Below, piece after piece: positions 14,801-40,100 of a stretch of DNA of 64,000 nt. The stretch is from contig CM082588.2 in the NCBI GenBank assembly GCA_040954595.2, forward strand, positions 12,103,398-12,167,397, read 5' to 3'. This stretch comes from Balanoglossus misakiensis (lineage: Eukaryota; Animalia; Hemichordata). Each line of letters opens with the position of its first letter. The stretch's first letter is position 1. The notes under the pieces are model-generated. The model did not search any database. It saw nothing but the letters and a program-made list of their open reading frames with translations, and was not told the origin of the DNA. A program made the position numbers and the translations under genes.

Positions 14801-17800
14801 CAAATAATTTAATTTCTTACATCATAAATGGAATTCAAAGAAAGGTCACGTAACAGGATATGTATAGTTTCAAGCCTTTGTTTTGGAGTAACGAATTCTC
14901 TACAAGATTTAAGTGGAACAGTCACAGAATGAAAACAAATATGGAAAGAGTTATGCTGAAATGTTGTAAGGGATAGATTAATATTGCATAAAATTTAATT
15001 ACTTACATCATAAATGGAATTCAAAGAATGGTCACATAACAGGATATGTTTTACTAAAAAGAATTATGTATAGGTTCAAGAATTTGTGTTGAAATACCAA
15101 ATTCTCTACAAGATTTAAGTGGAACAGTCACAGAATGAAAACAAATATGGAAAGAGTTATGTCGGAATGTTGTAAGGGATAGATTAATATTGCAAATAAT
15201 TTAATTTCTTACATCATAAATGGAATTCAAAGAATGGTCACATAACGGGCCATGTTTTACTAAAAAGACTTATGTATAGTTTGAAGGCTTTGTTTTGGAA
15301 TAACAAATTCTCTCCAAGATTTAAGTTGAACAGTTACAGAATGAAAACAAATATGGAAAGAGTTATGCCGGAATGTTGTAAGGGATAGATTAATATTGCA
15401 AATAATTTAATTTCTTACATCATAAATGGAATTCAAACAAAACGTCATGTAACACGATATATATAGTTTCAAGGCTTTGTTTTGGAATAACGAATTCTCT
15501 ACAAGATTTAAGTGGAAAAGTCACAGAATGAAAACAAATATGGAAAGAGTTATGCCGGAATGTTGTAAGGAATAGATTAATATTGCAAATAATTTAATTT
15601 CTTACATCATAAATGGAATTCAAAGAAAGGTCACGTAACAGGATATGTATAGTTTCAAGCCTTTGTTTTGGAGTAACGAATTCTCTACAAGATTTAAGTG
15701 GAACAGTCACAGAATGAAAACAAATATGGAAAGAGTTATGCTGAAATGTTGTAAGGGATAGATTAATATTGCATAAAATTTAATTACTTACATCATAAAT
15801 GGAATTCAAAGAATGGTCACATAACTGGATATGTTTTACTGAAAAGAATTATGTATAGGTTCAAGAATTTGTGTTGAAATACCAAATTCTCTACAAGATT
15901 TAAGCGGAACAGTCACAGAATGAAAACAAATATGGAAAGAGTTATGTCGGAATGTTGTAAGGGATAGATTAATATTGCAAATAATTTAATTTCTTACATC
16001 ATAAATGGAATTCAAAGAATGGTCACATAACGGGCCATGTTTTACTAAAAAGACTTATGTATAGTTTCAAGGCTTTGTTTTGGAATAACGAATTCTCTCC
16101 AAGATTTAAGTTGAACAGTTACAGAATGAAAACAAATATGGAAAGAGTTATGCCGGAATGTTGTAAGGGATAGATTAATATTGCAAATAATTTAATTTCT
16201 TACATCATAAATGGAATTCAAACAAAACGTCACGTAACACGATATATATAGTTTCAAGGCTTTGTTTTGGAATAACGAATTCTCTACAAGATTTAAGTGG
16301 AACAGTCACAGAATGAAAACAAATATGGAAAGAGTTATGCCGGAATGTTGTAAGGAATAGATTAATATTGCAAATAATTTAATTTCTTACATCATAAATG
16401 GAATTCAAAGAAAGGTCACGTAACAGGATATGTATAGTTTCAAGCCTTTGTTTTGGAGTAACGAATTCTCTACAAGATTTAAGTGGAACAGTCACAGAAT
16501 GAAAACAAATATGGAAAGAGTTATGCTGAAATGTTGTAAGGGATAGAATAATATTGCATAAAATTTAATTTCTTACATCATAAATGGAATTCAAAGAATG
16601 GTCACATAACTGGATATGTTTTACTAAAAAGACTTATGTATAGGTTCAAGAATTTGTGTTGAAATACCAAATTCTCTACAAGATTTAAGTGGAACAGTCA
16701 CAGAATGAAAACAAATATGGAAAGAGTTATGTCGGAATGTTGTAAGGGATAGATTAATATTGCAAATAATTTAATTTCTTACATCATAAATGGAATTCAA
16801 AGAATGGTCACATAACGGGCCATGTTTTACTAAAAAGACTTATGTATAGTTTTAAGGCTTTGTTTTGGAATAACGAATTCTCTCCAAGATTTAAGTTGAA
16901 CAGTTACAGAATGAAAACAAATATTCAAATAGTTATGCTGGATTGTTGTAAGGGATAGTTTAATATTGCAAATAATTTAATTTCTCACATCATAAATGAA
17001 ATTCAAAGAATGGTAAAATAACGGGCCATGTTTTACTAAAAAGACTTATGTATAGTTTGAAGGCTTTGTTTTGGAATAACGAATTCTCTACAAGATTTAA
17101 GTGGAATAGTCACAGAATGAAAACAAATATGGAAAGAGTTATGCTGGAATGTTGTAAGGGATAGATTAATATTGCAAATAATTTAATTTCTTACATCATA
17201 AAATGAATTCAAAGAATGGTCACATAACAGGATATGTTTTACTAAAAGACTTATGTTATAGTTTCAAGGCTTTGTTTTGGAATAAAGAATTCTCTACAAG
17301 ATTTAAGTGGAACAGTCACAGAATAAAAACAAATATGGAAAGAGTTATGCTGGAATGTTGTAAGGAATAGATTAATATTGCAAATAATTTCATTTCTTAC
17401 ATCATAAATGGAATTCAAAGAAAGGTCACGTAACAGGATATGTATAGTTTCAAGCCTTTGTTTTGGAGTAACGAATTCTCTACAAGATTTAAGTGGAACA
17501 GTCACAGAATGAAAACAAATATGGAAAGAGTTATGCTGAAATGTTGTAAGGGATAGAATAATATTGCATAAAATTTAATTTCTTACATCATAAATGGAAT
17601 TCAAAGAATGGTCACATAACTGGATATGTTTTACTAAAAAGACTTATGTATAGGTTCAAGAATTTGTGTTGAAATACCAAATTCTCTACAAGATTTAAGT
17701 GGAACAGTCACAGAATGAAAACAAATATGGAAAGAGTTATGTCGGAATGTTGTAAGGGATAGATTAATATTGCAAATAATTTAATTTCTTACATCATAAA

Positions 17801-20800
17801 TGGAATTCAAAGAATGGTCACATAACGGGCCATGTTTTACTAAAAAGACTTATGTATAGTTTCAAGGCTTTGTTTTGGAATAACGAATTCTCTCCAAGAT
17901 TTAAGTTGAACAGTTACAGAATGAAAACAAATATTCAAATAGTTATGCTGGATTGTTGTAAGGGATAGTTTAATATTGCAAATAATTTAATTTCTCACAT
18001 CATAAATGAAATTCAAAGAATGGTAAAATAACGGGCCATGTTTTACTAAAAAGACTTAATATGTATAGTTTGAAGGCTTTGTTTTGGAATAACGAATTCT
18101 CTACAAGATTTAAGTGGAACAGTCACAGAATGAAAACAAATATGGAAAGAGTTATGCCGGAATGTTGTAAGGAATAGATTAATATTGCAAATAATTTAAT
18201 TTCTTACATCATAAATGGAATTCAAAGAAAGGTCACGTAACAGGATATGTATAGTTTCAAGCCTTTGTTTTGGAGTAACGAATTCTCTACAAGATTTAAG
18301 TGGAACAGTCACAGAATGAAAACAAATATGGAAAGAGTTATGCTGAAATGTTGTAAGGGATAGATTAATATTGCATAAAATTTAATTACTTACATCATAA
18401 ATGGAATTCAATGAATGGTCACATAACTGGATATGTTTTACTAAAAAGAATTATGTATAGGTTCAAGAATTTGTGTTGAAATACCAAATTCTCTACAAGA
18501 TTTAAGTTGAACACTTACAGAATGAAAACAAATATGGAAAGAGTTATGCCGGAATGTTGTAAGGGATAGATTAATATTGCAAATAATTTAATTTCTTACA
18601 TCATAAATGGAATTCAAAGAATGGTCACATAACAGGATATGTTTTACTGAAAAGACTTATGTTATAGTTTCAAGGCTTTGTTTTGGAATAACGAATTCTC
18701 TACAAGATTTAAGTGGAACAGTCACAGAATGAAAACAAATATGGAAAGAGTTATGCCGGAATGTTGTAAGGAATAGATTAATATTGCAAATAATTTAATT
18801 TCTTACATCATAAATGGAATTCAAACAAATGTCACGTAACAGGATATGTATAGTTTCAAGGCTTTGTTTTGGAATAACGAATACTCTACAAGATTTAAGT
18901 AGAACAGTCACAGAATGAAAACAAATATGGAAAGAGTTATGCTGGAATGTAGTAAGGGATAGATTAATATTGCAAACAATTTAATTTCTTACACCATAAA
19001 TGGAATTCAAAGAAAGGTCGCGTAACAGGATATGTACAGTTTCAAGCCTTTGTTTTGGAATAACGAATTCTCTACAAGATTTAAGTGGAACAGTCACAGA
19101 ATGAAAACAAATATGGAAAGAGTTATGTCGGAATGTTGTAAGGGATACATTAATATTGCAAATAATTTAATTTCTTACATCATAAATGGAATTCAAAGAA
19201 TGGTCACATAACGGGCCATGTTTTACTAAAAAGACTTATGTATAGTTTCAAGGCTTTGTTTTGGAATAACGAATTCTCTCCAAGATTTAAGTTGAACAGT
19301 TACAGAATGAAAACAAATATGGAAAGAGTTATGCTGGAATGTTGTAAGGGATAGATTAATATTGCAAATAATTTAATTTCTTACATCATAAAATGAATTC
19401 AAAGAATGGTCACATAACAGGATATGTTTTACTAAAAAGACTTATGTATAGTTTCAAGGCTTTGTTTTGGAATAACGAATTCTCTCCAAGATTTAAGTTG
19501 AACAGTTACAGAATGAAAACAAATATGGAAAGAGTAATGCCGGAATGTTGTAAGGAATAGATTAATATTGCAAATAATTTAATTTCTTACATCATAAAAT
19601 GAATTCAAACAAACGTCACGTAATAGGATATGTATAGTTTCAAGGCTTTGTTTTGGAATAACGAATACTCTACAAGATTTAAGTAGAACAGTCACAGAAT
19701 GAAAACAAATATGGAAAGAGTTATGCTGGAATGTTGTAAGGGATAGATTAATATTGCAAAAAATTTAATTTCTTACACCATAAATGGAATTCAAAGAAAG
19801 GTCACGTAACAGGATATGTATAGTTTCAAGCCTTTGTTTTGGAATAACGAATTCTCTACAAGATTTAAGTGGAACAGTCACAGAATGAAAACAAATATGG
19901 AAAGAGTTATGTCGGAATGTTGTAAGGGATAGATTTATATTGCAAATAATTTAATTTCTTACAGCATAAATGGAATTCAAAGAATGGTCACATAACGGGC
20001 CATGTTTTACTAAAAAGACTTATGTTATAGTTTCAAGGCTTTGTTTTGGAATAACGAATTCTCTACAAGATTTAAGTGGAACAGTCACAGAATGAAAACA
20101 AATATGGAAAGAGTAATGCCGGAATGTTGTAAGGAATAGATTAATATTGCAAATAATTTAATTTCTTACATCATAAAATGAATTCAAACAAACGTCACGT
20201 AATAGGATATGTATAGTTTCAAGGCTTTGTTTTGGAATAACGAATACTCTACAAGATTTAAGTAGAACAATCATAGAATGAAAACAAATATGGAAAGAGT
20301 TATGCTGGAATGTTGTAAGGGATAGATTAATATTGCAAAAAATTTAATTTCTTACACCATAAATGGAATTCAAAGAAAGGTCACGTAACAGGATATGTAT
20401 AGTTTCAAGCCTTTGTTTTGGAATAACGAATTCTCTACAAGATTTAAGTGGAACAGTCACAGAATGAAAACAAATATGGAAAGAGTTATGTCGGAATGTT
20501 GTAAGGGATAGATTAATATTGCAAATAATTTAATTTCTTACATCATAAATGGAATTCAAAGAATGGTCACATAACGGGCCATGTTTTACTAAAAAGACTT
20601 ATGTATAGTTTCAAGGCTTTGTTTTGGAATAACGAATTCTCTCCAAGATTTAAGTTGAACAGTTACAGAATGAAAACAAATATGGAAAGAGTAATGCCGG
20701 AATGTTGTAAGGAATAGATTAATATTGCAAATAATTTAATTTCTTACATCATAAAATGAATTCAAACAAACGTCACGTAATAGGATATGTATAGTTTCAA

Positions 20801-22431
20801 GGCTTTGTTTTGGAATAACGAATACTCTACAAGATTTAAGTAGAACAGTCACAGAATGAAAACAAATATGGAAAGAGTTATGCTGGAATGTTGTAAGGGA
20901 TAGATTAATATTGCAAAAAATTTAATTTCTTACACCATAAATGGAATTCAAAGAAAGGTCACGTAACAGGATATGTATAGTTTCAAGCCTTTGTTTTGGA
21001 ATAACGAATTCTCTACAAGATTTAAGTGGAACAGTCACAGAATGAAAACAAATATGGAAAGAGTTATGTCGGAATGTTGTAAGGGATAGATTTATATTGC
21101 AAATAATTTAATTTCTTACAGCATAAATGGAATTCAAAGAATGGTCACGTAACAGGATATGTATAGTTTCAAGCCTTTGTTTTGGAATAACGAATTCTCT
21201 ACAAGATTTAAGTGGAACAGTCACAGAATGAAAACAAATATGGAAAGAGTTATGTCGGAATGTTGTAAGGGATAGATTAATATTGCAAATAATTTAATTT
21301 CTTACATCATAAATGGAATTCAAAGAATGGTCACATAACGGGCCATGTTTTACTAAAAAGACTTATGTATAGTTTCAAGGCTTTGTTTTGGAATAACGAA
21401 TTCTCTCCAAGATTTAAGTTGAACAGTTACAGAATGAAAACAAATATGGAAAGAGTTATGCTGGAATGTTGTAAGGGATAGATTAATATTGCAAATAATT
21501 TAATTTCTTACATCATAAAATGAATTCAAAGAATGGTCACATAACAGGATATTTTTTACTAAAAAGACTTATGTATAGTTTCAAGGCTTTGTTTGGAATA
21601 ACGAATTCTCTCCAAGATTTAAGTTGAACAGTTACAGAATGAAAACAAATATTCAAATAGTTATGCTGGAATGTTGTAAGGGATAGTTTAATATTGCAAA
21701 TAATTTAATTTCTTACATCATAAATGAAATTCAAAGAATGGTCAAATAACGGGCCATGTTTTACTAAAAAGACTTAATATGTATAGTTGAAGGCTTTGTT
21801 TTGGAATAACGAATTCTCTACAAGATTTAAGTGGAACAGTCACAGAATGAAAACAAATATGGAAAGAGTTATGTCGGAATGTTGTAAGGGATAGATTAAT
21901 ATTGCAAATAATTTAATTTCTTACAGCATAAAATGAATTCAAACAAACGTCACGTAATAGGATATGTATAGTTTCAAGGCTTTGTTTTGGAATAACGAAT
22001 ACTCTACAAGATTTAAGTAGAACAATCACAGAATGAAAACAAATATGGAAAGAGTTATGCTGGAATGTTGTAAGGGATAGATTAATATTGCAAAAAATTT
22101 AATTTCTTACACCATAAATGGAATTCAAAGAAAGGTCACGTAACAGGATATGTATAGTTTCAAGCCTTTGTTTTGGAATAACGAATTCTCTACAAGATTT
22201 AAGTGGAACAGTCACAGAATGAAAACAAATATGGAAAGAGTTATGTCGGAATGTTGTAAGGGATAGATTAATATTGCAAATAATTTAATTTCTTACATCA
22301 TAAATGGAATTCAAAGAATGGTCACATAACGGGCCATGTTTTACTAAAAAGACTTATGTATAGTTTCAAGGCTTTGTTTTGGAATAACGAATTCTCTCCA
22401 AGATTTAAGTTGAACAGTTACAGAATGAAAA
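5861..22431. repeat. Satellite DNA array, left arm; 186-bp and ~206-bp monomers
   Basis: Uninterrupted head-to-tail copies of ...GAATTCTCTACAAGATTTAAGTGGAACAGTCACAGAATGAAAACAAATATGGAAAGAG... The 62-aa periodicity of the minus-strand ORFs equals 186 bp. The long form carries an extra TTTACTAAAAAGACTTATGT (e.g. spacing 6334 to 6540 = 206). Confidence 0.98.
10455..14842. repeat. Near-perfect 2166-bp tandem duplication (about 11 monomers) within the satellite
   Basis: Identical ORF translations offset by exactly 2166 (10514/12680, 11001/13167, 11285/13451). Private variants recur at the same offset. Confidence 0.9.
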
Positions 22432-23644
22432 TTAAAGCTGCAAGCAGCGTTGGCGGGGCACAAGCGGTTCCCATGGTGACCAGCAAATGCCACGGCTGTA
22501 TCTGCTGGGGATACCAATATATGGGAAAGTAGGTCAAAGGTCACCTGAGGTCACCCAAAATTTGGGCAAAAAAATTGGACCCCATAATAGTCTAGATCCA
22601 ACAAAAAACCAGACCCCTAGCCCTATTGGTTCGCCTGCAATTAGGTATGCACATAATTAATGAAGTCTTGTGTAAGACTCCATTATGTGCTCAATCCCCA
22701 TAAAAGCCAGGGCTCTAACTGCTCTGGATGCTGAGATATGGGAAAGTAGATCAAAGGTCACCCAAGGTCACCCAAAATTAGGGCATAAAATTTTGACCCC
22801 AGAGTGGGCCATGTCCAACCAATACCAGACCTCTAGCCCTATTGGGTAGCATGGAATTAGATATGCAGAAAAATGATGTTTCAGAAATAGGTCAAAGGTC
22901 ATTGTCAAAATTACCAAAATATTTGTGTCATGTCCTGGCAGCATTGGTACCCATGTCCACAAAATTCATGACTTTGGTGCTTTGACAAGAGGAGGTATGG
23001 GGAATATGCATATATAATTAGTTGTTTTAAAACTGGGTCAAAGGTCATGTGAAAATTGCCCCGAAAAATTGTGACAACTTCCGGTCATATGATGACTCAT
23101 ATCCCAAAAAAGTATTTCCATGCTGTCAACATTTTGGCTACAAAACGGAATTATCACTTTTCAATGGTTTTCCGAAAATCCAACATGGCCGCCATAATGA
23201 TCGACCAATCACAGTGCGCTTCGCAAACTTGATAGACATAGGTTAGGTGACCACATATCCCAAATCCCGAGACTCGGTAACCGCTGGTTCTGGAGAAGAA
23301 GATTTTTAAAGTTTTAAGTAGTTTTTCAGAAAAACAATTGTAGCAAAAAAACTTTATGTATGACGTCATGATTTTAATGGGGTAAAATGATGGACATAAG
23401 GTAGGCTACCTGCACACCAAATTTGAACTCGATCGGCCCAGTGGTTTTAGAGAAGGACTCATTTAACGATTTTCAGGAAATCCAATATGGCCGCCAGGTC
23501 ACGTGACTAATTAAATATTCACGAGCCACTGCACGTCTACTCATTGGCCCCTACCACCCTACCAAGTTTCAGCCCCCTAGGTGCTGCGGTTTTCCAGATC
23601 TACCTGGCCGAATTTCTCGGAAGAAGAAGAATAATAAAGAAGAA
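22432..23644 (-). mobile_element. HINE-like element 1 body (outermost); cap at 34105-34160
   Basis: Variant subTIR GGGGCACAAGCG (22455-22466) is matched only by the last hairpin (CGCTTGTGCCCC, 34147-34158). Body ends in a GAA/TAA microsatellite. Confidence 0.85.
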
Positions 23645-25320
23645 TTAAAGCTGCAAGCAGCATTGTCCGGGCCCAAGCTCTATTATCTGATCAGATTATT
23701 AGATATGCACATAATTAATGAGTAGAAACATAATGCTGTGTTTTATCCCATGAAATATCAAGGTTATATCTATGTTTGGTGCTGATATAATGTTAAGTAG
23801 GTCAAAGGTCCCCTGAGGTCACCCAAAATTTGGGCAGAAAAATTTGACCCATAGTGGTCCATGTCCAACAAAAACCAGACCTCTAGCCCTTTTGGTTAGC
23901 CCGGAATTAGGTATGCACATAAATAATGAGTTAAGCAGGTGTCACAGGTGACCCAAAACTTTGGCTTTTAATTATGGCCCCATACCTCCAAACGCCAAGG
24001 CTGTATCTGCTGTGGATGTCGAGATATGCAAAAGTAGGTCAAAGGTCACCAGAGGTCACCCAACATTTGGGCAAATTTGTTTGACCCAATACTGGTCCAT
24101 GTCCAACAGAAACCAAACCTCTAGGTCTATTGGTTCATCTGGAATTAGGTATGTGCATATTTAATGAGGTCAGCAGAGGTCACAGGTGACCCTAAACTGT
24201 GGCTTTTCATTATGGCCCCATATATCCAAATGCCAAGGCTGTACCTGCTTTGGATACCAAGATATGCAAAAGTAGGTCAAAGGTTATCCGTGGTCACCCA
24301 ACATTTGGGTAAAATATTTTGACCCCGTACTGATCCATGTCCAAAAAAACCCAAACCTCCAGGTCTATTGGTTCATCATGAATTAGGTATGCGCATATTT
24401 AATGCGGTCAGCAGAGGTCAAAGGGGTCATGAAAAGTAGCAAAATTGTTTGATCACATACAAATCCACATACATCAAAAACCAAACTTGTAGCCCTATTG
24501 GTTAGCCTGGAATTAGATATGCAGAAAAATGATGTGTCAAAAGTAGGTCAAAGGTCTTTGCCAAAATTACCAAAATATTTATAGCTTATTCTTGTCATAT
24601 GATGATTCATATCCATAAAAAGAATTTCTGTGCTATCAATTTTTAGGCTAGAAAGGGAATTTTTACTTTTTAATCGTTTTTCACAAAATCCAATATGGCC
24701 GCCATAATCTTCGACTAATCACATTCTTCTTCGCAAACTTGATAGACATCTGTTTAATGACCACACACACCAAATCTTGTGACTCGGTTATCGCCGGTTC
24801 TCGAGAAGAAGATTTTTGAAATTTTACTAGGGTTTTTCGAAAATCCAATATGGCCGCCATAATCTTCGACCAATCACAATGATCTTCGCAAACTTGATAG
24901 ACATCAGTTAGTTGACCACATACCCCAAACCCCGTGTCTCGGTTATCACCGGTTCTAGAGAAGAAGATTTTTGAAATTTAAGCCAGATTTCAGAAAAAAA
25001 ATTGTAGCAAAAAAACTGCAACATTGACAGCATAATTTCCAATTACAAAAATGTTTGACAGAAGGTAGTCTACCTGCACGCCAAATTTGAAGTCGATCTG
25101 ACTTGTAGTTTCTGAGATCTGAGATTTGCATTTTTTCAGAAAATCCAAGATGGCCGCCAGGTCATGTGACTAATTAAAAATTCATGGGTTCAATGCACGA
25201 CTACTCATTGACCTTGACCACTGTAGCAAGTTTGAGAACTGTACCTGCAGTGGTGTCTGAGATCTAGAGCGACAAAGAAATGACAGAAGAATATAGAAAG
25301 AAGAAAGAAAGAAAGACAGA
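23645..25320 (-). mobile_element. HINE-like element 2 body; inferred cap 34051-34104
   Basis: TTAAAGCTGCAAGCAGCATTGTCCGGGCCCAAGC start, three ~237-bp subrepeats, ends GAAAGAAAGACAGA. Confidence 0.8.
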
Positions 25321-26751
25321 TTAAAGCTGCAAGCAGCATTGTCCGGGCCCAAGCTCTATTAACTGATCTGATTATTAGATATGCACGTAATTAATGAGTA
25401 GAAACATAATGCTGTGTTTTATCCCATGAAATATCAAGATTATATCTATGTTTAGTGCTGATATAGTGTTAAGTAGGTCGAAGGTCACCCAGAGGTCACC
25501 CACAATTTGGGCAGAAAATTTTGACCCATAGTGGTCCATGTCCAACAAAAAACAGACCTCTACCCCTTTTGGTTAGCCCGGAATTAGGTATGCATATAAA
25601 TAATGAGTTAAGCAGGTGTCACAGGTGACCCAAAACTTTGGCTTTTCATTATGGCCCCATACCTCCAAACGCCAAGGCTGTATCTGCTGTGGATGCTGAG
25701 ATTTGCGAAAGTACGTCAAAGGTCACCAGAGGTCACCCAACATTTGGGTAAAAAATTTTGACCCCATACTTGTCCTGTCCAACAAAAACAAAACCTCTAG
25801 GTCTATTGGTTCGCCTGTAATTAGCTATGCACATAATTAATTAGGTCAGCAGGGGTCAAAGGGGTCATGAAAAGTAGCAAAATATTTTGATCACACACTA
25901 ATCCACATACAACAAAGACCAAACTTATAGCCCTATTGGTTAGCCTGGAATTAGATATGCAGAAAAATGATGCGTCAAAAGTAGGTCAAAGGTCATTGCC
26001 AAAATTACCAAAATATTTAAAGCACATTGTAGTCATATGATGATTCATATCCATAAAAAGAATTTCTGTGCTATCAATTTTTAGGCTAGAAAGGGAATTT
26101 TTACTTTTTAATCGTTTTTCACAAAATCCAATATGGCCGCCATAATCTTCGACCAATCACAATGCTCTTTGCAAACTTGATAGACATCTGTTTAATGACC
26201 ACACACACCAAATCTTGTGACTCGCTTATCGCCGGTTCTTGAGAAGAAGATTTTTGAAATTTTACTAGGGTTTTTCGAAAATCCAATATGGCCGACAAAA
26301 TCTTCGACCAATCACAATGATCTTCGCAAACTTGATAGACATCAGTTAGGTGACCACATACACCAAACCCTGTGTCTCGGTTATCACCGGTTCTGGAGAA
26401 GAAGATTTTTGAAATTTAAGCCAGATTTCAGAAAAAAAATTGTAGCAAAAAACTGCAACTTTGTCAGCATAATTTCCAATTACAAAAATGATGGACAGAG
26501 GGTAGTCTACCAGCATGCCAAATTTGAAGTCGATCTGACTTGTAGTTTCTGAGATCTGAGATTTGCATTTTTTCAGAAAATCCAAGATGGCCGCCAGGTC
26601 ACGTGACTAATTAAAAATTCAAGGGTTCAATGCACGACTACTCATTGACCTTGACCACTGTAGCAAGTTTCAGAAGTGTACCTGCAGCGGTGTCTGAGAT
26701 CTCGTGGGTCAAAGAATTGACACAAGAATAAAGAAAGAAAGAAAGAAAGTA
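25321..26751 (-). mobile_element. HINE-like element 3 body; inferred cap 33998-34050
   Basis: Same terminus, two ~237-bp subrepeats, ends GAAAGAAAGTA. Confidence 0.8.
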
Positions 26752-27862
26752 TTAAAGCTGCAAGCAGCATTGTCCGGGCCCAAGCTCTATTATCTGATCT
26801 GATGCTGATATAGTGTTAAGTAGGTCAAAGGTCACCCGAGGTCACCCAACATTTGGGCAAAATATTTTGACCCCATACTGGTCCATGTATAACAAAAACA
26901 AAACCTCTAGGTCTATTGGTTCATCTGTAATTAGCTATGCACATAATTAATGAGGTAAGCAGAGGTCAAAGGGGTCATGAAAAGTAGCAAAAATTTTTGA
27001 TCACATACAAATCCACATACATCAAAAACCAAACGTCTAGCCCTATTGGTTAGCCTGGAATTAGATATGCAGAAAAAAGATGCGTCAAAAGTAGGTCAAA
27101 GGTCATTGCCAAAATTACCAAAATATTTATAGCTTATTCTTGCCATATGATGATTCATATCCATAAAAAGAATTTCTGTGCTATCAATTTTTAGGCTAGA
27201 AAAGGAATTTTTACTTTTAAATCGTTTTTCACAAAATCCAATATGGCCGCCATAATCTTCGACCAATCACATTCCCCTTCGCAAACTTGATAGACATCTG
27301 TTTAATGACCAAACACACCAAATCTTGTGACTCGGTTATCGCCCGTTCTGGAGAAGAAGATTTTTGGAGTTTAACTATTGTTTTTCGAAAATCCAATATG
27401 GCCGCCATAATCTTCGACCAATCACAATGATCTTCGCAAACTTGATAGACATCAGTTAGGTGACCACATACCCCAAACCGCGTGACTTAGTTATCACCGG
27501 TTCTGGAGAAGAAGATTTTTGAAATTTAAGCCAGATTTCAGAAAAAAAATTGTAGCAAAAAAACTGCAACATTTACAGCAAAATATCCAATTACAAAAAT
27601 GATGGGTAGAAGGAAGACTACCTGCACACCAAATTTGAAGTCGATCTGACTTGTAGTTTCTGAGATCTGAGATTTGCATTTTTTCAGAAAATCCAATATG
27701 GCCGCCAGGTCACGTGACTAATTAAAAATTCAAGGGTTCAATGCACAACTACTTATTGACCTTGACCACTGTAGCAAGTTTCAGAAGTGTACCTGCAGCG
27801 GTGTCTGAGATCTAGAGCGACAAAGAATTGACAGAAGAATAAAGAAAGAAAGAAAGAAAGAA
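26752..27862 (-). mobile_element. HINE-like element 4 body (internally shortened); inferred cap 33937-33997
   Basis: Same terminus, deletion near 26800, one subrepeat, ends in (GAAA)n. Confidence 0.8.
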
Positions 27863-29294
27863 TTAAAGCTGCAAGCAGCATTGTCCGGGCCCAAGCTCTA
27901 TTATCTGATCTGATTATTAGTTATGCACATTATGAATGAGTAGAAACATAATGCTGTGTTTTATCCCATGAAATATCAAGGTTATATCTAGGTTTGGTGT
28001 TGACATAGTGTTAAGTAGGTCAAAGGTCACCCAGAGGTCACCCAAAATTTGGGCAGAATATTTTGACCCATAGTGGTCTATGTCCAACAAAAACCAGATC
28101 TCTAGCCCTTTTGGTTAGCCCGGAATTAGGTATGCACATAAATAATGAGTTAAGCAGGTGTCACAGGTGACCCAAAACTTTGGCTTTTCATTATGGCCCT
28201 ATACCTCCAAACGCCAAGGCTGTATCTGCTGTGGATGTCAAGATATGCCAAAGTAGGTCAAAGGTCATCCGAGGTCACCCAACATTTGGGCAAAATATTT
28301 TGACCCCATACTGGTCCATGTATAACCAAAACAAAATCTCTAGGTCTATTGGTTCATCTGTAATTAGGTATGTGCATATTTAATGAGGTCAGCAGAGGTC
28401 AAAGGGGTCATGAAAAGTAGCAACATTTTTTGATTACATACAAATCCACATACATCAAAAACCAAACTTATAGCCCTATTGATTAGCCTGGAATTAGATA
28501 TGCAGAAAATTGATGCGTCAAAAATAGGTCAAAGGTCAATGCCAAAATTACCAAAATATTTATAGCTTATTCTTGTTATATGATGATTCATATCCATAAA
28601 AAGAATTTCTGCGCTATCAATTTTTAGGCTAGAAAGGGAATTTTTACTTTTTAATCGTTTTTCACAAAATCCAATATGGCCGCCATAATCTTCGACCAAT
28701 CACATTCCTCTTCGCAAACTTGATAGACATCTGTTGAATGACCACACACACCAAATCTTGTGACTCGGTTATCGCCGGTTCTCGAGAAGAAGATTTTTGA
28801 AATTTTACTAGGGTTTTTCGAAAATCCAATATGGCCGCCATAATCTTCGACCAGTCACAGTGATCTTCGCAAACTTGATAGACATCAGTTAGGTGACCAC
28901 ATACCCCAAACCCCGTGTCTCGGTTATCACCGGTTCTGGAGAAGAAGATTTTTGAAATTTAAGCCAGATTTCAGAAAAAAAATTGTAGCAAAAAAACTGC
29001 AACATTGACAGCATAATTTCCAATTACAAAAATGTTTGACAGAAGGTAGTCTACCTGCACGCCAAATTTAAAGTTGATCTGACTTGTAGTTTCTGAGATC
29101 TGAGATTTGCATTTTTTCAGAAAATCCAAGATGGCCGCCAGGTCATGTGACTAATTAAAAATTCATGGGTTCAATGCACGACTACTCATTGACCTTGACC
29201 ACTGTAGCAAGTTTGAGAACTGTACCTGCAGTGGTGTCTGAGATCTAGAGCGACAAAGAAATGACAGAAGAATAAAGAAAGAAGAAAGAAAGAA
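27863..29294 (-). mobile_element. HINE-like element 5 body; inferred cap 33876-33936
   Basis: Same terminus, two subrepeats, distal part nearly identical to element 2. Confidence 0.8.
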
Positions 29295-30715
29295 TTAAAG
29301 CTGCGAGCAGCATTGTCGGGCCCAAGCGCTGATCTTGAATTATATATGCACAGTATGAATGAGAAGAAACAGAATTTTCTATCGGATGTATTATCTCATG
29401 ACATATCAAGGACGTGTGTATTTTTGCTGCTTAAATAGGGTGAAGTAGGTCAAAGGTCACCTGAGGTCACCCAACATTTGGGCAATTTTTTTTGACCCAT
29501 ACTGGTCCATGTCCAACAAAAACCAAAACTCTAGCTCTATTGGTTCGCCTGTAATTAGGTATGTGCATATTTAATGAGGTCAGCAGGTGTCACAGGTGAC
29601 CCAAAAATGTGGCTTTACATTTTGGTCCCATCCTACCAAATGCCATGGCTGTATCTGCTCTGGATGCTGAGATATGCGAAAGTAGGTCAAAGGTCACCAG
29701 AGGTCACGCAACATTTGGGCAAAACATTTTGACCCCATACTGGTCTGTGTCCAACAAAAACCAAACCTCTAGCTCTATTGGTTCGCCTGTAATTAGCTAT
29801 GCACATAATTAATGAGGTCAGCAGAGGTCAAAGGGGTCATGAAAAGTAGCAAAATATTTTGATCACACACTAATCCACATTCATCAAAAACCAAACGTCT
29901 AGCCCTATAGGTTAGCCTGGAATTAGATATGCAGAAATAATAACGCGTGATAAGTAGGTCAAAGGTCATGTGAAAAATCGCCAAAAAATTGTAACATATT
30001 TTAGTCACATGACGATTGATATCCATAAAAAGAATTTGTATGCTATCAATTTTTAGACTAGAAAAAGGAATTTCAATTTTTCACTGCTTTTTACAAAATC
30101 CAATATGGCCGCCATAATCTTCAACCAATCACAATGCTCTTTGCAAACTTGATAGACATCAGTGTAGTGACCATACTCCCCGAATCTTGCGACTCAGTCA
30201 TCGCCCGTTCTGGAGAAGAAGATTTTTGGAGTTTAACAATGGTTTTTCTAAAATCCAATATGGCCGCCATAATCTTCGACCAATCACAATGATCTTCGCA
30301 AACTTGATAGACATCAGTTAGGTGACCACATACCCCAAACCCCGTGTCTCGGTTATCACTGGTTCTGGAGAAGAAGATTTTTGAAATTTAAGCCAGATTT
30401 CAGAAAAAAAATTGTAGCAAAAAAACTGCAACATTGACAGCAAAATTTCCAATTACAAAAATGATGGGTAGAAGGTAGTCTACCTGCATGCCAAATTTGA
30501 AGTCGATCTGACTTGTAGTTTCTGAGATCTGAGATTTGAATTTTTTCAGAAAATCCAATATGGCCGCCAGGTCACGTGACTAATTAATTATTCACAAGTC
30601 ACTGCACATCTACTCATTGACCTTGACCACTGTATCAAGTTTGAGAAGTGTACCTGCAGTAGTTTCAGAGATCTCGTTGGCCGAAGAAATTGACACAAGA
30701 AAAAAGAAAGAAAGA
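29295..30715 (-). mobile_element. HINE-like element 6 body (diverged subfamily); inferred cap 33822-33875
   Basis: Starts TTAAAGCTGCGAGCAGCATTGTCGGGCCCAAGCGC with a diverged first 150 bp, ends in (GAAA)n. Confidence 0.8.
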
Positions 30716-32145
30716 TTAAAGCTGCAAGCAGCATTGTCCGGGCCCAAGCTCTATTATCTGATCTGATTATAAGATATGCACATAATTAATGAGTAGAAAC
30801 ATAATGCTGTGTTTTATCCCATGAAATATCAAGGTTATATCTGTTTGGTGCTGATATAGTGTTAAGTAGGTCAAAGGTCACCCAGGGGTCACCCATAATT
30901 TTGGCAGAACATTTTGACCCATAGTGGTCCATGTCCAACAAAAGCCAGACCTCTAGCCCTTTTGGTTAGCCCGGAATTAGGTATGCACATAAATAATGAG
31001 TAAAGCAGGTGTCACAGGTGACCCAAAACTTTGGCTTTTAATTATGGCCCTATGCCTCCAAACGCCAAGGCTGTATCTGCTGTGGATGTCGAGATATGCA
31101 AAAGTAGGTCAAAGGTCACCCGAGGTCACCCAACATTCGGGCAAAATATTTTGACCCCATACTTGTCCATGTCCAACAAAAACCAAACCTCTAGCTCTCT
31201 TGGTTCGCCCGTAATTAGCTATGCACATAATTAATGAGGTCAGCTGAGGTCAAAGGGGTCATGGAAAGTAGCAAAATATTTTGATCACACACTAATCCAC
31301 ATGCATCAAAAACCAAATGTCTAGCCCTTTTGGTTAGCCTGTAATTAGATATGCAGAAAAATGATGCATCAAAAGTAGGTCAAAGGTCATTGCCAAAATT
31401 ACCAAAATATTTATAGCTTATTCTTGTCATATGATGAGTCATATCCATAAAAAGAATTTCTGTGCTATCAATATTTGGGCTAGAAAGGGAATTTTTACTT
31501 TTTAATCGTTTTTCACAAAATCCAATATGGCCGCCATAATCTTCGACCAATCACATTCCTCTTCGCAAACTTGATAGACATCTGTTTAATGACCACACAC
31601 ACCAAATCTTGTGACTCAGTTATCGCCGGTTCTTGAGAAGAAGATTTTTGAAATTTTACTAGGGTTTTTCGAAAATCCAATATGGCCGCCTTAATCTTCG
31701 ACCAATCACAATGATCTTCGCAAACTTGATAGACCTCAGTTTGGTGACCACATACCCCAAACCGCGTGACTCGGTTATCGCCGGTTCTGGAGAAGAAGAT
31801 TTTTGAAATTTTGACCAGATTTCAGAAAAACAACTGTAGCAAAAAATCTGCAACATTGACAGCAAAATATCCAATTACAAAAATGATGGGCAGAAGGTAC
31901 ACTACCAGCACACCAAATCTGAAGTAAATCTGACTTGTAGTTTCTGAGATCTGAGATTTGCATTTTTTCAGAAAATCCAATATGGCCGCCATGTCACGTG
32001 ACTAATTAAAAATTCAAGAGTTCAATGCACGACTACCCATTGACCTTGACCACTGTAGCAAGTTTGAGAAGTGTACCTGCAGCGGTGTCTGAGATCTAGA
32101 GCGACAAAGAATTGACACAAGAATAAAGAAAGAAGAAAGAAAGAA
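30716..32145 (-). mobile_element. HINE-like element 7 body; inferred cap 33769-33821
   Basis: Same terminus as elements 2-5, two subrepeats, ends in (GAAA)n. Confidence 0.8.
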
Positions 32146-33768
32146 ATATAGCTGCAAGCAGCGATGACGGGCCCAAGCTTAAGCCGAAGGTCAAAGGTCA
32201 TAAGAGGTCACCCGAAATTTTGGCAAGAAATTTTGACCCCCATACTGGTCCGTGTCCCACAAGAACAAAATCTCTAGCCCTATTGGTTCGCCTACAATTA
32301 GGTATGCGCATAATTAATGAGATAAAGTGTAAGGCTCCATCAGGAGTTCCATCCCTCCAAATGCCAAGGCTGTATCTGCTGTGGATGCCGAGATATGGTA
32401 AAGTAGGTCAAAGGTCACCTGAGGTCACCCAAAATTTGGGCAAAAAATTTTGACCCCATACTGGTCCATGGTCAGCATAAATCAAACCTCTAGCCCTATT
32501 GCTTAGCCTGGAATTAGGTATGCACATAATTAATGAGATAAGCAGGTGTCACAGGTGACCCCAATTTTGGCTTTTCAATTTTAGTCCCAACCCTCCAAAC
32601 GCCAAGTCTGTACCTGCTCTGGATGCGGAGATATAGGAAAGTAGGTCAAAGGTCACCTGAGGTCACCCAAAATTTGGGCAAGAAATTTTGACCCTATACT
32701 GGTCCATGTCCCACAAGAACGAAACCTCTAGCCCTCTTAGTTAACCCAGAATTAGGTATGCACATAATTAATGAGTTAAGCAGGTGTCACAGGTGACCCC
32801 CAGTGTTGCCTTTTCAATTTTAGTCCCAACCCTCCAAACGCCAAGTCTGTACCTGCTCTGGATGCCAAGATATAGGAAAGTAGGTCAAAGGTCACCTGAG
32901 GTCACCCAAAATTTGGGCAAGAAATTTTGACCCTATACTGGTCCATGTCCCACAAGAACGAAACCTCTAGCCCTCTTATTTAGCCCAGAATTAGGTATGC
33001 ACATAATTAATGAGTTAAGCAGGTGTTACAGGTGAGCCTAAAATTGTGCCTTTTATTTTGGTGCCATTGTGCTCACCGACCAATAGACAGTCACTGTACA
33101 GGACTATTGCACAGACCAGAATTCCACAATAAGACATGGACATAGCTTATCCATAGAGGTATAAGTAAAGGTATTATTTAATAAAAAAATTAATATAAAA
33201 AAATCGGTCGATTTTTCATACTATTTTTTTTCGCTTAAAATTATTGACAAATGCTAGGCTAGCTGCATACCAAAGTTGAAGAAGATTGGCCTGACAGATT
33301 TTGAGATATGTATGCATATTTATCCAAAATAATATGTGGTCATGGCTTTACTATGGAAAGTATAGGCCCATGGCTTGGTAAAAAATATGAAAAATAATAC
33401 TTAAAAATCTTCTTCTCAAAATTGGAATGGCCAATGGCCTTGACATTTGGCATGTAGTACACTGACCACATGGTCCGCAAAAGTTGCTAAAAGAATTTTG
33501 ATATCTCCATTCATATGCAAATAAGGCCGATTTCAAAATTTTGCCCATATATGGTCATCAGGTCACATGACTAATTAAACATTCACAAGGGTACTGCACT
33601 AGCTCTCATTGGCCTGCACCATTGTGCCAAGTTTGAAATTGGTAGGTTTAGCAGTTTTCCAGATCTACCTCGCCAAAGAAAACGACAGAAGAAGAAAAAG
33701 AAGAAGAAGTAGAAGAAAAACCAGGATAATACCAATAGGGCCCAAGCGCTGCATGCGCTTGGGCCCTA
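32146..33768 (-). mobile_element. HINE-like element 8 (innermost, uninterrupted, distinct subfamily)
   Basis: Starts ATATAGCTGCAAGCAGCGATGACGGGCCCAAGC. About four ~238-bp subrepeats, a unique 33060-33540 segment, an intact (GAA)n tract ~33686-33720, and its own hairpin 33736-33768 directly attached. Confidence 0.85.
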
Positions 33769-34160
33769 AAAACCCCAACGAAACCAATAGGGCCCAAGCG
33801 CTGGCTTGCGCTTGGGCCCTAAAAAACCCCAACGAAACCAATAGGGCCCAAGCGCTTGCGTGCGCTTGGGCCCTAAAGACAGAAAAACCCCAACGAAACC
33901 AATAGGGCCCAAGCGCTGGTATGCGCTTGGGCCCTAAAGACAGAAAAACCCCAACGAAACCAATAGGGCCCAAGCGCTGGTATGCGCTTGGGCCCTAAAA
34001 ATTCCAACGAAACCAATACGGGCCCAAGCCTGGCTTGGCTTGGGCCCGTAAAAAACCCCAACGAAACCAATAGGGCCCAAGCGCTGGTATGCGCTTGGGC
34101 CCTAAATATTCCAACAATAACAATGGGGGCACAAGCCGCCTGAGGGCGCTTGTGCCCCCA
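33736..34160. repeat. Stack of eight terminal hairpin caps (52-61 bp period)
   Basis: Hairpins at 33736-33768, 33788-33821, 33842-33875, 33903-33936, 33964-33997, 34017-34050, 34071-34104 and 34124-34160. Consensus TAGGGCCCAAGCGC-loop-GCGCTTGGGCCCTA with AAAACCCCAACGAAACCAA linkers. Confidence 0.95.
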
Positions 34161-37100
34161 ACAAATATGGAAAGAGTTATGCTGGAATGTTGTAAGGGAT
34201 AGATTAATATTGCAAATAATTTAATTTCTTACATCATAAAATGAATTCAAAGAATGGTCACATAACAGGATATGTTTTACTAAAAAGACTTATGTATAGT
34301 TTCAAGGCTTTGTTTGGAATAACGAATTCTCTCCAAGATTTAAGTTGAACAGTTACAGAATGAAAACAAATATTCAAATAGTTATGCTGGAATGTTGTAA
34401 GGGATAGTTTAATATTGCAAATAATTTAATTTCTTACATCATAAATGAAATTCAAAGAATGGTCAAATAACGGGCCATGTTTTACTAAAAAGACTTAATA
34501 TGTATAGTTGAAGGCTTTGTTTTGGAATAACGAATTCTCTACAAGATTTAAGTGGAACAGTCACAGAATGAAAACAAATATGGAAAGAGTTATGTCGGAA
34601 TGTTGTAAGGGATAGATTAATATTGCAAATAATTTAATTTCTTACAGCATAAATGGAATTCAAAGAATGGTCACATAACGGGCCATGTTTTACTAAAAAG
34701 ACTTATGTATAGTTTCAAGGCTTTGTTTTGGAATAACGAATTCTCTCCAAGATTTAAGTTGAACAGTTACAGAATGAAAACAAATATGGAAAGAGTTATG
34801 CTGGAATGTTGTAAGGGATAGATTAATATTGCAAATAATTTAATTTCTTACATCATAAATGGAATTCAAAGAATGGTCACATAACGGGCCATGTTTTACT
34901 AAAAAGACTTATGTATAGTTTCAAGGCTTTGTTTTGGAATAACGAATTCTCTCCAAGATTTAAGTTGAACAGTTACAGAATGAAAACAAATATTCAAATA
35001 GTTATGCTGGAATGTTGTAAGGGATAGTTTAATATTGCAAATAATTTAATTTCTTACATCATAAATGAAATTCAAAGAATGGTCAAATAACGGGCCATGT
35101 TTTACTAAAAAGACTTAATATGTATAGTTTGAAGGCTTTGTTTTGGAATAACGAATTCTCTACAAGATTTAAGTGGAACAGTCACAGAATGAAAACAAAT
35201 ATGGAAAGAGTTATGCCGGAATGTTGTAAGGAATAGATTAAAATTGCAAATAATTTAATTTCTTACATCATAAATGGAATTCAAAGAAACGTCACGTAAC
35301 AGGATATGTATAGGTTCAAGAATTTGTGTTGAAATACCAAATTCTCTACAAGATTTAAGTGGAACAGTTACAGAATGAAAACAAATATTCAAATAGTTAT
35401 GCTGGAATGTTGTAAGGGATAGTTTAATATTGCAAATAATTTAATTTCTTACATCATAAATGAAATTCAAAGAATGGTCAAATAACGGGCCATGTTTTAC
35501 TAAAAAGACTTAATATGTATAGTTGAAGGCTTTGTTTTGGAATAACGAATTCTCTACAAGATTTAAGTGGAACAGTCACAGAATGAAAACAAATATGGAA
35601 AGCGTTATGCCGGAATGTTGTAAGGGATAGATAATTATTGCAAATAATTTAATTTCTTACATCATAAATGGAATTCAAAGAATGGTCACATAACGGGCCA
35701 TGTTTTACAAAAAGACTTATGTATAGTTTCAAGGCTTTGTTTTGGAATAACGAATTCTCTACAAGATTTAAGTGGAACAGTCACAGAATGAAAACAAATA
35801 TGGAAAGAGTTATGCCGGAATGTTGTAAGGAATAGATTAAAATTGCAAATAATTTAATTTCTTACATCATAAATGGAATTCAAAGAATGGTCACATAACG
35901 GGCCATGTTTTACAAAAAGACTTATGTATAGTTTCAAGGCTTTGTTTTGGAATAACGAATTCTCTACAAGATTTAAGTGGAACAGTCACAGAATGAAAAC
36001 AAATATGGAAAGAGTTATGCTGAAATGTTGTAAGGGATAGATTAATATTGCAAATAATTTAATTTCTTACATCATAAATGGAATTCAAAGAATGGTCACA
36101 TAACGGGCCATGTTTTACTAAAAAGACTTATGTATAGTTTCAAGGCTTTGTTTGGAATAACGAATTCTCTCCAAGATTTAAGTTGAACAGTTACAGAATG
36201 AAAACAAATATTCAAATAGTTATGCTGGAATGTTGTAAGGGATAGATTAATATTGCAAATAATTTAATTTCTTACATCATAAATGGAATTCAAAGAAACG
36301 TCACGTAACAGGATATGTATAGTTTCAAGGCTTTATTTTGGAATAACGAATTCTCTACAAGATTTAAGTGGAACAGTCACAAAATGAAAACAAATATTCA
36401 AATAGTTATGCTGGAATGTTGTAAATGATAGTTTAATATTGCAAATAATTTAATTTCTTACATCATAAATGAAATTCAAAGAATGGTCACATAACGGGCC
36501 ATGTTTTACCAAAAAGACTTATGTATAGTTTCAAGGTTTTGTTTTGGAATAACGAATTCTCTACAAGATTTAAGTGGAATAGTCACAGAATGAAAACAAA
36601 TATGGAAAGAGTTATGCTGGAATGTTGTAAGGGATAGATTAATATTGCAAATAATTTAATTTCTTACATTATAAAATGAATTCAAAGAATGGTCACATAA
36701 CAGGATATATTTTACTAAAAAGACTTATGTTATAGTTTCAAGGCTTTGTTTTGGAATAACGAATTCTCTACAAGATTTAAGTGGAACAGTCACAGAATGA
36801 AAACAAATATGGAAAGAGTTATGCCGGAATGTTGTAAGGAATAGATTAATATTGCAAATAATTTAACTTCTTACATCATAAATGGAATTCAAAGAAAGGT
36901 CACGTAACAGGATATGTATAGTTTCAAGCCTTTGTTTTGGAGTAACGAATTCTCTACAAGATTTAAGTGGAACAGTCACAGAATGAAAACAAATATGGAA
37001 AGAGTTATGCTGAAATGTTGTAAGGGATAGATTAATATTGCATAAAATTTTTATTTCTTACATCATAAATGGAATTCAAAGAATGGTCACATAACTGGAT

Positions 37101-40100
37101 ATGTTTTACTAAAAAGACTTATGTATAGGTTCAAGAATTTGTGTTGAAATACCAAATTCTCTACAAGATTTAAGTGGAACAGTCACAGAATGAAAACAAA
37201 TATGGAAAGAGATATGTCAGAATGTTGTAAGGGATAGATTAATATTGCAAATAATTTAATTTCTTACATCATAAATGGAATTCAAAGAATGGTCACATAA
37301 CGGGCCATGTTTTACCAAAAAGACTTATGTATAGTTTCAAGGTTTTGTTTTGGAATAACGAATTCTCTACAAGATTTAAGTGGAATAGTCACAGAATGAA
37401 AACAAATATGGAAATAGTTATGCTGAAATGTTGTAAGGGATAGTTTAATATTGCAAATAATTTAATTTCTTACATCATAAATGAAATTCAAAGAATGGTC
37501 AAATAACAAGCCATGTTTTACTAAAAAGACTTAATATGTATAGTTTGAAGGCTTTGTTTTGGAATAACGAATTCTCTACAAGATTTAAGTGGAACAGTCA
37601 CAGAATGAAAACAAATATGGAAAGCGTTATGCTGGAATGTTGTAAGGGATAGATTAATATTGCAAATAATTTAATTTCTTACATAATAAAATGAATTCAA
37701 AGAATGGTCACATAACAGGATATGTTTTACTAAAAAGACTTATGTTATAGTTTCAAGGCTTTGTTTTGGAATAACGAATTCTCTACAAGATTTAAGTGGA
37801 ACAGTCACAGAATGAAAACAAATATGGAAAGAGTTATGCCGGAATGTTGTAAGGAATAGATTAAAGTTGCAAATAATTTAATTTCTTACATCATAAATGG
37901 AATTCGAAGAAAGGTCACGTAACAGGATATGTATAGGTTCAAGAATTTGTGTTGAAATACCAAATTCTCTACAAGATTTAAGTGGAACAGTCACAGAATG
38001 AAAACAAATATGGAAAGAGTTATGTCGGAATGTTGTAAGGGATAGATTAATATTGCAAATAATTTAATTTCTTACATCATAAATGGAATTCAAAGAATGG
38101 TCACATAACGGGCCATGTTTTACTAAAAAGACTTATGTATAGTTTCAAGGCTTTGTTTGGAATAACGAATTCTCTCCAAGATTTAAGTTGAAGAGTTACA
38201 GAATGAAAACAAATATTCAAATAGTTATGCTGGAATGTTGTAAGGGATAGATTAATATTGCAAATAATTTAATTTCTTACATCATAAATGGAATTCAAAG
38301 AATGGTCACATAACGGGCCATGTTTTACTAAAAAGACTTGTGTATAGTTTCAAGGCTTTGTTTGGAATAACGAATTCTCTCCAAGATTTAAGTTGAACAG
38401 TTACAGAATGAAAACATATATTCAAATAGTTATGCTGGTATGTTGTAAGGGATAGTTTAATATTGCAAATAATTTAATTTCTTACATCATAAATGAAATT
38501 CAAAGAATGTTCACATAACGGGCCATGTTTTACTAAAAAGACTTAATATGTATAGTTTGAAGGCTTTGTTTTGGAATAACGAATTCTCTACAAGATTTAA
38601 GTGGAACAGTCACAGAATGAAAACAAATATGGAAAGCGTTATGCTGGAATGTTGTAAGGGATAGATTAATATTGCAAATAATTTAATTTCTTACATCATA
38701 AAATGAATTCAAAGAATGGTCACATAACAGGATATGTTTTACTAAAAAGACTTATGTTATAGTTTCAAGGCTTTGTTTTGGAATAACGAATTCTCTACAA
38801 GATTTAAGTGGAACAGTCACAGAATGAAAACAAATATGGAAAGAGTTATGCCGGAATGTTGTAAGGAATAGATTAAAGTTGCAAATAATTTAATTTCTTA
38901 CATCATAAATGGAATTCGAAGAAAGGTCACGTAACAGGATATGTATAGGTTCAAGAATTTGTGTTGAAATACCAAATTCTCTACAAGATTTAAGTGGAAC
39001 AGTCACAGAATGAAAACAAATATGGAAAGAGTTATGTCGGAATGTTGTAAGGGATAGATTAATATTGCAAATAATTTAATTTCTTACATCATAAATGGAA
39101 TTCAAAGAATGGTCACATAACGGGCCATGTTTTACTAAAAAGACTTATGTATAGTTTCAAGGCTTTGGTTGGAATAACGAATTCTCTCCAAGATTTAAGT
39201 TGAACAGTTAAAGAATGAAAACAAATATTCAAATAGTTATGCTGGAATGTTGTAAGGGATAGATTAATATTGCAAATAATTTAATTTCTTACATCATAAA
39301 TGGAATTCAAAGAATGGTCACATAACGGGCCATGTTTTACTAAAAAGACTTGTGTATAGTTTCAAGGCTTTGTTTGGAATAACGAATTCTCTCCAAGATT
39401 TAAGTTGAACAGTTACAGAATGAAAACATATATTCAAATAGTTATGCTGGAATGTTGTAAGGGATAGTTTAATATTGCAAATAATTTAATTTCTTACATC
39501 ATAAATGAAATTCAAAGAATGTTCACATAACGGGCCATGTTTTACTAAAAAGACTTATGTATAGTTTCAAGGTTTTGTTTTGGAATAACGAATTCTCTAC
39601 AAGATTTAAGTGGAATAGTCACAGAATGAAAACAAATATGGAAAGAGTTATGCTGGAATGTTGTAAGGGATAGATTAATATTGCAAATAATTTAATTTCT
39701 TACATCATAAAATGAATTCAAAGAATGTTCACATAACAGGATATATTTTACTAAAAAGACTTATGTTATAGTTTCAAGGCTTTGTTTTGGAATAACGAAT
39801 TCTCTACAAGATTTAAGTGGAACAGTCACAGAATGAAAACAAATATGGAAAGAGTTATGCCGGAATGTTGTAAGGAATAGATTAATATTGCAAATAATTT
39901 AATTTCTTACATCATAAATGGAATTCAAATAAAGGTCACGTAACAGGATATGTATAGTTTCAAGCCATTGTTTTGGAGTAACGAATTCTCTACAAGATTT
40001 AAGTGGAACAGTCACAGAATGAAAACAAATATGGAAAGAGTTATGCTGAAATGTTGTAAGGGATAGATTAATATTGCATAAAATTTTTATTTCTTACATC

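Follow-up and report, generated by a model that had tools for sequence, protein, structure and literature searches.

How do eight related transposable elements come to lie one inside the other, each having entered its predecessor at nearly the same place? The question is raised by a window (the whole stretch of DNA analysed) of 64,000 nt from the hemichordate Balanoglossus misakiensis (GCA_040954595.2, CM082588.2, positions 12,103,398-12,167,397, forward strand). Most of the window is a 186/206-bp satellite (5861-22431 and 34162-64000), and its single interruption is the block at 22432-34161 (Table 1). Within it, eight related bodies, each 1.1-1.7 kb long and opening with the same short palindrome, follow one another, and a stack of eight hairpins comes next at 33736-34161. 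The block is a true eight-deep nest inside the satellite. Judged by their sequence features, its elements (E1, outermost, to E8, innermost) are likely non-coding members of the Helitron2/Helentron type (HINE, DINE-1-like), which are of the rolling-circle kind.

The nest is apparent from how the ends fit together. By motif search, the palindromic heads begin at the first position of each body in Table 1, and the seven internal junctions proposed by an earlier sequence-only reading all coincide with these head starts. All eight heads lie on one strand, and the elements read on the minus strand. The eight stacked hairpin ends, which terminate at the last positions given in Table 1, balance the eight heads; the two sets pair last-in-first-out, and rejoining them in that order gives coherent sites. 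Only 4 of 5040 pairings satisfy all four sequence checks, with the nested order among those 4, and the checks were picked post hoc after inspection of the data. The outer head and outer end have in common a variant repeat that is absent from every other pair, and three bodies with one terminal variant pair with three ends carrying one loop. A run of five A before the spacer returns to five after rejoining in all five hosts with that spacer, and variants flanking each cut agree across up to 10.5 kb. At least seven host-guest junctions are distinct, differing in cut site, host variant or guest subfamily. Excision of the nest in silico brings back a satellite monomer with its 4-A run, which is present in 197 of 197 monomers, and reveals no target duplication.

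Such a nest might be mimicked if bodies and hairpins had been duplicated in tandem or if the assembly were wrong. E4 and E5 have the same 61-nt end, no contig among those listed spans a long aligned stretch, and the E8 head (32146-32180) fits the end assigned to E3 (33999-34051) over 12 nt, against 10 nt for its own end, possibly by chance. However, all of the bodies differ (86.5-96.5% identity within E2-E7, and 55-69% for E1 and E8), so recent tandem copying is no explanation of them. Contigs cross a tail-to-spacer joint (a tail being a hairpin end), the outer empty site is exactly restored, and the agreement of variants across the cuts also speaks against this explanation, which is largely refuted and very improbable. 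Recombination between a circle and a resident copy at the locus was rejected, because it would yield a head-tail-head-tail order and not a nest.

Read on the minus strand, each element consists of a hairpin, a spacer, a (TTTC)n tract, central repeats, a 3' copy of the 5' repeat and a weak stem-loop. By the usual convention the large hairpin is taken as the 5' end. Its arm of 13-14 bp starts from nt 2 in all eight elements, with the repeat beginning at nt 4, and the four 5' ends that were folded gave -18.8 to -22.7 kcal/mol (z of -6 to -7). The pyrimidine tract is 24-40 nt long and starts at nt 50-53, and the central repeats measure 238 bp and 155 bp. Near the other end, a 10-12-bp copy of the 5' repeat lies 23-24 nt from the 3' end (8/8). 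The 3' stem-loop sequence GCTGC..GCAGC is retained in all eight heads, and the three that were folded formed a weak 4-bp stem no better than that of shuffled sequences. Insertion occurred between two T (T/T) at all seven internal sites and at G/T at the outer site, with a one-base ambiguity of the ends and no target duplication. Judged by frame length, the longest of 15 stop-to-stop frames of at least 80 aa has 117 aa. An Rfam search of the elements gave 0 matches. Assignment to Helitron1 was rejected because the ends and targets are unlike 5'-TC, CTRR-3' and an A/T target. A cut-and-paste MITE (a miniature transposable element with inverted repeats) was rejected because the repeats are asymmetric and subterminal and the outer site is restored without duplication.

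After rejoining, the internal cuts lie 53, 53, 54, 54, 56, 61 and 61 nt from the host end, or 18-26 nt past the hairpin arm. The sequence-only reading had placed them in the GAA/GAAA tract, about 20-30 bp from the hairpin. The distance needs slight correction, and all seven cuts are indeed in the tract but are confined to its near edge: five are in a short A-run at the hairpin side, 3-4 nt in, two are 11 nt in, and none of the seven reaches the middle of the 24-40-nt tracts or beyond. Each host offers 249-369 T/T sites on its two strands, with 13-22 of these within nt 45-100. The probability that all seven cuts fall within nt 45-100 is about 10^-8.5 if all host T/T sites are equal and about 10^-7.5 under a TNTT rule, both windows having been chosen post hoc after the data were seen. 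Plain T/T preference is rejected, which bears out the earlier claim that targeting goes beyond TT preference. The cuts are also biased toward the tract edge, ranking 1-5 of 10-18 T/T sites (P=0.003) and 1-3 of 7-10 TNTT sites (P=0.0004). E6 was cut in an edge run of five T despite a deeper run of six, and E1 was cut at the first site despite having no long run there.

The shared orientation of the insertions and the nearly empty satellite had also been offered as signs of targeting, and both are rejected as such. TT occurs 12-20 times per tract on the element strand and 0-3 times on the other, so the T/T rule alone fixes orientation. A scan of the satellite (46,410 bp) for other non-satellite stretches of at least 40 bp found none besides the nest, so the count of one insertion is correct, but the satellite is a poor control. 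Of 26 test kilobases, nine have a twin at 99.7-100% identity; much of the satellite is therefore a recent amplification, and 46 kb overstates the exposed target.

The topology of the nest also bears on the target. Each insertion left its host a residual tract of 20-35 nt with 9-13 T/T sites. The displaced hairpins likewise retained a T-run at an unchanged distance, the 392-bp stack containing 12 TTTT sites. Neither kind of site has been hit again here. If tracts are equal and layers were added singly, a pure nest has P=1/7!=2e-4. Together these results argue for a target that requires hairpin and tract jointly, although this is not decisive because conversion of an empty host also needs both sides intact, and the bodies have a mosaic look. 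The proposal that a resident terminus recruits the Rep/helicase is narrowed accordingly: the hairpin alone misfits, as displaced hairpins with T-runs were never hit again, and the hairpin together with its tract would fit. Insertion was further said to leave both host termini intact, which it does, and to use a safe harbour. The latter suits the genome, since the nest lies in satellite, but suits the host element poorly, in which a complete guest now lies between the 5' end and the body. In the model for Fusarium FoHeli elements, a host 5' end separated in this way then carries the guest and moves with it (PMC5148889; here and below, published work is cited from titles, abstract openings and passages).

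Our best reading is terminus-guided targeting, in which the partner Rep/helicase favours those T-rich sites that come first after a resident 5' end that is still intact. It is plausible, and we infer it with a probability of roughly 0.5. A putative RepHel partner, encoded elsewhere, would bind or open the resident 5' end, consisting of the 14-bp hairpin, a 15-18-nt spacer and the 24-40-nt pyrimidine tract, and so expose the T-rich strand. The incoming circle would then be joined at the first usable T-run. Because insertion would separate the hairpin from the tract, only the newest intact element would stay a good target, and the nest would grow inward. HUH nucleases are described as cutting only single-stranded DNA, and Helraiser as acting via circles (PMC4778049).

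Several results weigh against terminus-guided targeting, and they are given in this and the following two paragraphs with the other explanations on which they bear. The edge bias fades once T-run length is used as a weight: at powers 1-4, P climbs through 0.013, 0.043, 0.10 and 0.18, and strong weighting thus removes significance. Under the TTTT rule alone, for which four cuts qualify, P=0.35. With the ends shifted by one base, six of the seven cuts follow TTTT or TCTT, which are words of the Helitron2 rule (PMC3627910); local site choice is therefore ordinary, but the concentration at one place is not. The outer insertion used a satellite site with a T-run and pyrimidines and no hairpin nearby, and insertion of the moth Helitrons MINE-1 into GAAA microsatellites is reported second-hand in a review (PMC3812793). 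These observations are in line with a plain sequence preference, by which the transposase favours a T-run plus pyrimidine tract anywhere and the family carries the best such site beside its hairpin. The window's only (GAA/GAAA)n tracts are the elements' own, so the window cannot separate the two ideas. A plain preference does not account well for the residual 20-35-nt tracts that were not hit again, for the rank of the cuts among equal TNTT sites, or for the longer T-run passed over in E6, and FoHeli self-insertions occur at a similar distance (PMC5148889). We consider it possible but on the whole rather unlikely.

Five sequencing runs from two samples contain family sequence; two of these (X1 and X2) are possibly from the window's own sample, and X4 and X5 have only 105-109 pieces. 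Contigs aligned on 3.6 kb number 12,981 in X1 and 7,340 in X2, which indicates that the family is abundant. Nesting elsewhere in the genome, on which the sequence-only reading depended, was found: across one 60-base joint of hairpin end and spacer, spacer depth is 10% (X1) and 14% (X2) of hairpin depth. This ratio has a floor of 5% when everything running off the end is removed and reaches 26-50% when matched for edge effects, an overcount since uncut spacers are also present; contig depth is not copy number, and the fractions give a rough range. The chance expectation is 0.006-0.03%, assuming 2,000-10,000 copies in 310 Mb. These values, which count in favour of terminus-guided targeting, suggest as a very rough figure that such sites hold 5-30% or more of the family's ends across the genome. 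Other layouts are also seen. Among the best 14 of 15 loose-end rows, spacers of other subfamilies come after hairpin ends and unrelated flanks after tails, and one contig has a tail followed by GAAA repeats. In X1, a joint from 34051 to 30715 (depth 1143; among the best 15 of 125 joints) has a hairpin end, an 8-letter TAA repeat and a head: a pair of neighbouring elements sharing a tract, an arrangement not present in the window. From these alternative layouts, most copies are probably not nested, and self-insertion is common but not exclusive. A tail followed directly by a head was found at 33822 in organism A (X1; 7 contigs in one loose-end row, with agreement 0.69) and in organism B (X4; 1 contig), where a circle and a tandem pair are indistinguishable; these contigs confirm the element ends. 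No family match was found in viral, metagenome or genome collections, and no autonomous partner is seen in the window. The head motif had 0 matches in viral contigs and 0 in genome contigs. The hairpin motif occurred at 89 metagenome loci, of which 0 had a BLAST match of at least 40 bp to the elements; by G+C and flanks, these look like unrelated microbial hairpins. In published work, 701 events of Helraiser (a Helitron1) gave no sign of clusters close to donors (PMC4778049), and the end at which Helitron2 replication starts is disputed (PMC5148889, PMC3627910).

A pure nest is also obtainable by copying occupied sites. In that case the stack would be built from parts made elsewhere, with rare insertions and with occupied sites spread by gene conversion or composite-unit movement. 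Gene conversion would need homology on both sides of a site, so that only intact hosts would qualify. Nest depth would then overstate local targeting, and copying can combine with either targeting by a resident end or plain sequence preference. E2-E7 (23645-32145) share variants in incompatible blocks (pairs 2-5, 3-6, 4-6 and 4-7; trios 2-4-5 and 2-3-5), a pattern that recombination predicts and that, as a sequence pattern, points to recombination or conversion among copies. Dating of layers by private substitutions gave no outer-to-inner trend (13, 44, 34, 16 and 31 for E2, E3, E4, E5 and E7). A chain of eight layers would be expected only with some 30% or more of copies nested, and at fewer than 0.02 per genome with 15% or less; a local hotspot, copying, or the scan's selection of a rare case may therefore play a part. 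Some odd joints occur at high depth. Copying is nevertheless unlikely in our view: because the seven junctions differ, at least seven own-tract insertions happened somewhere, a whole-stack rolling-circle move must bypass seven internal ends, and heads and tails balance 8 to 8.

Compared with known systems, the elements most resemble the HINE/DINE-1 Helentrons (Thomas et al., 2014, PMC4067079; Yang and Barbash, 2008, PMC2374699; oyster Cg_HINE, PMC7492417), with which they share a folded 5' subterminal repeat, an adjacent microsatellite, central tandem repeats, a 3' subterminal repeat followed by a stem-loop, no open reading frame, and a T-rich target without duplication. They differ in the sequence of the subterminal repeat and in having a (TTTC)n tract in place of GTCY, and nesting in the element's own microsatellite is not described in the passages on those families. 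In Fusarium oxysporum, the first 31, 65, 73 or 85 nt of FoHeli1 are repeated, which was attributed to self-insertion (Chellapan et al., 2016, PMC5148889), and up to five 5' ends per copy are reported in a TR4 study (PMC13342296). In FoHeli, 5' ends of 31-85 nt are stacked, self-insertion is placed close to the 5' end at a similar distance, and ends are joined, with no microsatellite mentioned in those passages. FoHeli stacks have several 5' ends and one 3' end, with the full nested intermediate inferred, whereas here each of the eight 5' ends still has its 3' end and body, and the site is marked by a microsatellite.

Chlamydomonas Helitron2 (Bao and Jurka, 2013, PMC3627910) is similar in its asymmetric terminal repeats, hairpins at both ends and insertion after TTTT or related T-rich words without duplication; it differs in that the passages describe no self-nesting and argue that replication starts at the 3' end. 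For maize Helitron1 (Dong et al., 2011, PMC3288121), nests have been proposed as multi-ended intermediates, and one insertion lies 25 bp from a 5' end. Those elements have TC...CTAG ends, an A/T target, mostly multiple 3' ends and no carried microsatellite target. MINE-1 (PMC3812793) and Paramecium Helitrons, which are found in telomeric repeats in one orientation (PMC13085455), are alike in preferring simple repeats, with orientation set by the repeat strand. In both the repeat is genomic, while here it travels inside the element. The passages of four other sources (PMC4344730, PMC3630058, PMC11417382 and PMC13286980) describe no own-family nesting at a fixed site. A balanced HINE nest in its own microsatellite was not found in the literature covered, which excluded subscription journals, Repbase Reports and supplements.

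The remaining repeats lie around the nest. In the right satellite array (34162-64000), higher-order repeats of about 5.9 and 6.3 kb are 99.8-100% identical, and the left array has an exact repeat of 2166 bp. At the satellite's left edge is a MITE-like element (4713-5861), putatively PIF/Harbinger-like, whose terminal inverted repeats span 36 bp (94%) and which is flanked at both ends by a TAA triplet. A partial second copy of it begins near 2554, and 76-nt inverted repeats of 21-22-bp units, spaced 1.5 kb apart (2043-3676), surround this partial copy. Another element (904-1192) has a near-perfect 58-bp hairpin (1066-1192) and an additional inverted pair (904-926 and 1050-1072).

Table 1. Positions of the nest, its layers and the flanking satellite in the 64,000-nt window.
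Feature	Positions	Strand	Basis
Whole nest of eight elements, likely non-coding Helitron2/HINE-type	22432..34161	-	Empty-site restoration; Tandem Repeats Finder (TRF) arrays on both sides
Left satellite array, host of E1	5861..22431	+	TRF, self-comparison
Right satellite array, near-identical higher-order repeats of ~5.9 and 6.3 kb	34162..64000	+	TRF, self-comparison
E1 body and 3' end, outermost; variant-inverted-repeat subfamily GGGGCACAAGC	22432..23644	-	68-69% identity to E2-E7
E2 body and 3' end; one additional 238-bp repeat	23645..25320	-	Motif, repeat and identity comparison
E3 body and 3' end	25321..26751	-	
E4 body and 3' end; ~320 bp shorter (internal deletion)	26752..27862	-	
E5 body and 3' end; nearest relative E2 (96.5%)	27863..29294	-	
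E6 body and 3' end; 86.5-89% to E2-E5 and E7	29295..30715	-	
E7 body and 3' end	30716..32145	-	
E8, innermost, sole intact element, divergent subfamily; uncut tract ~33680-33720, 5' hairpin 33736-33769	32146..33769	-	
E7 displaced 5' end (hairpin and spacer), 53 nt	33770..33822	-	
E6 displaced 5' end, 54 nt	33823..33876	-	
E5 displaced 5' end, 61 nt	33877..33937	-	
E4 displaced 5' end, 61 nt, identical to that of E5	33938..33998	-	
E3 displaced 5' end, 53 nt; both hairpin arms altered yet still paired	33999..34051	-	
E2 displaced 5' end, 54 nt	34052..34105	-	
E1 displaced 5' end, 56 nt; variant inverted repeat matching only the head at 22432	34106..34161	-	
E1 residual pyrimidine tract beside guest 3' end	23620..23644	-	
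Comparable residual tracts, 20-35 nt	ending 25320, 26751, 27862, 29294, 30715, 32145	-	
Central 238-bp tandem repeat, example	23795..24424	not assigned	Repeat finder
155-bp dimers that come after the 238-bp repeat example	e.g. 24676-24979		

Self-insertion near the 5' end is already published for Fusarium, and the present nest is an unusually complete example of it. An intermediate of this balanced form is what the Fusarium and maize models predict for multi-ended Helitrons, and the nest defines a target that can be dissected into hairpin, spacer and tract. The questions it addresses are how Helitron2 elements choose their targets and why their non-coding partners keep a microsatellite by the 5' hairpin. 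A tentative answer, which we hold to be possible but less than probable, is that the microsatellite beside a DINE-1-like 5' hairpin may be a working landing pad, cut at a set distance under the guidance of the resident end. By such a general Helitron2 rule, a sizeable share of jumps would go into the family itself, the resident 5' end would be taken over, and stacks would form. Were the cut guided by the end, copy number and the growth of heterochromatin would be shaped by self-targeting; if there is only a preference for T-runs, the nest is a tidy example of known behaviour.

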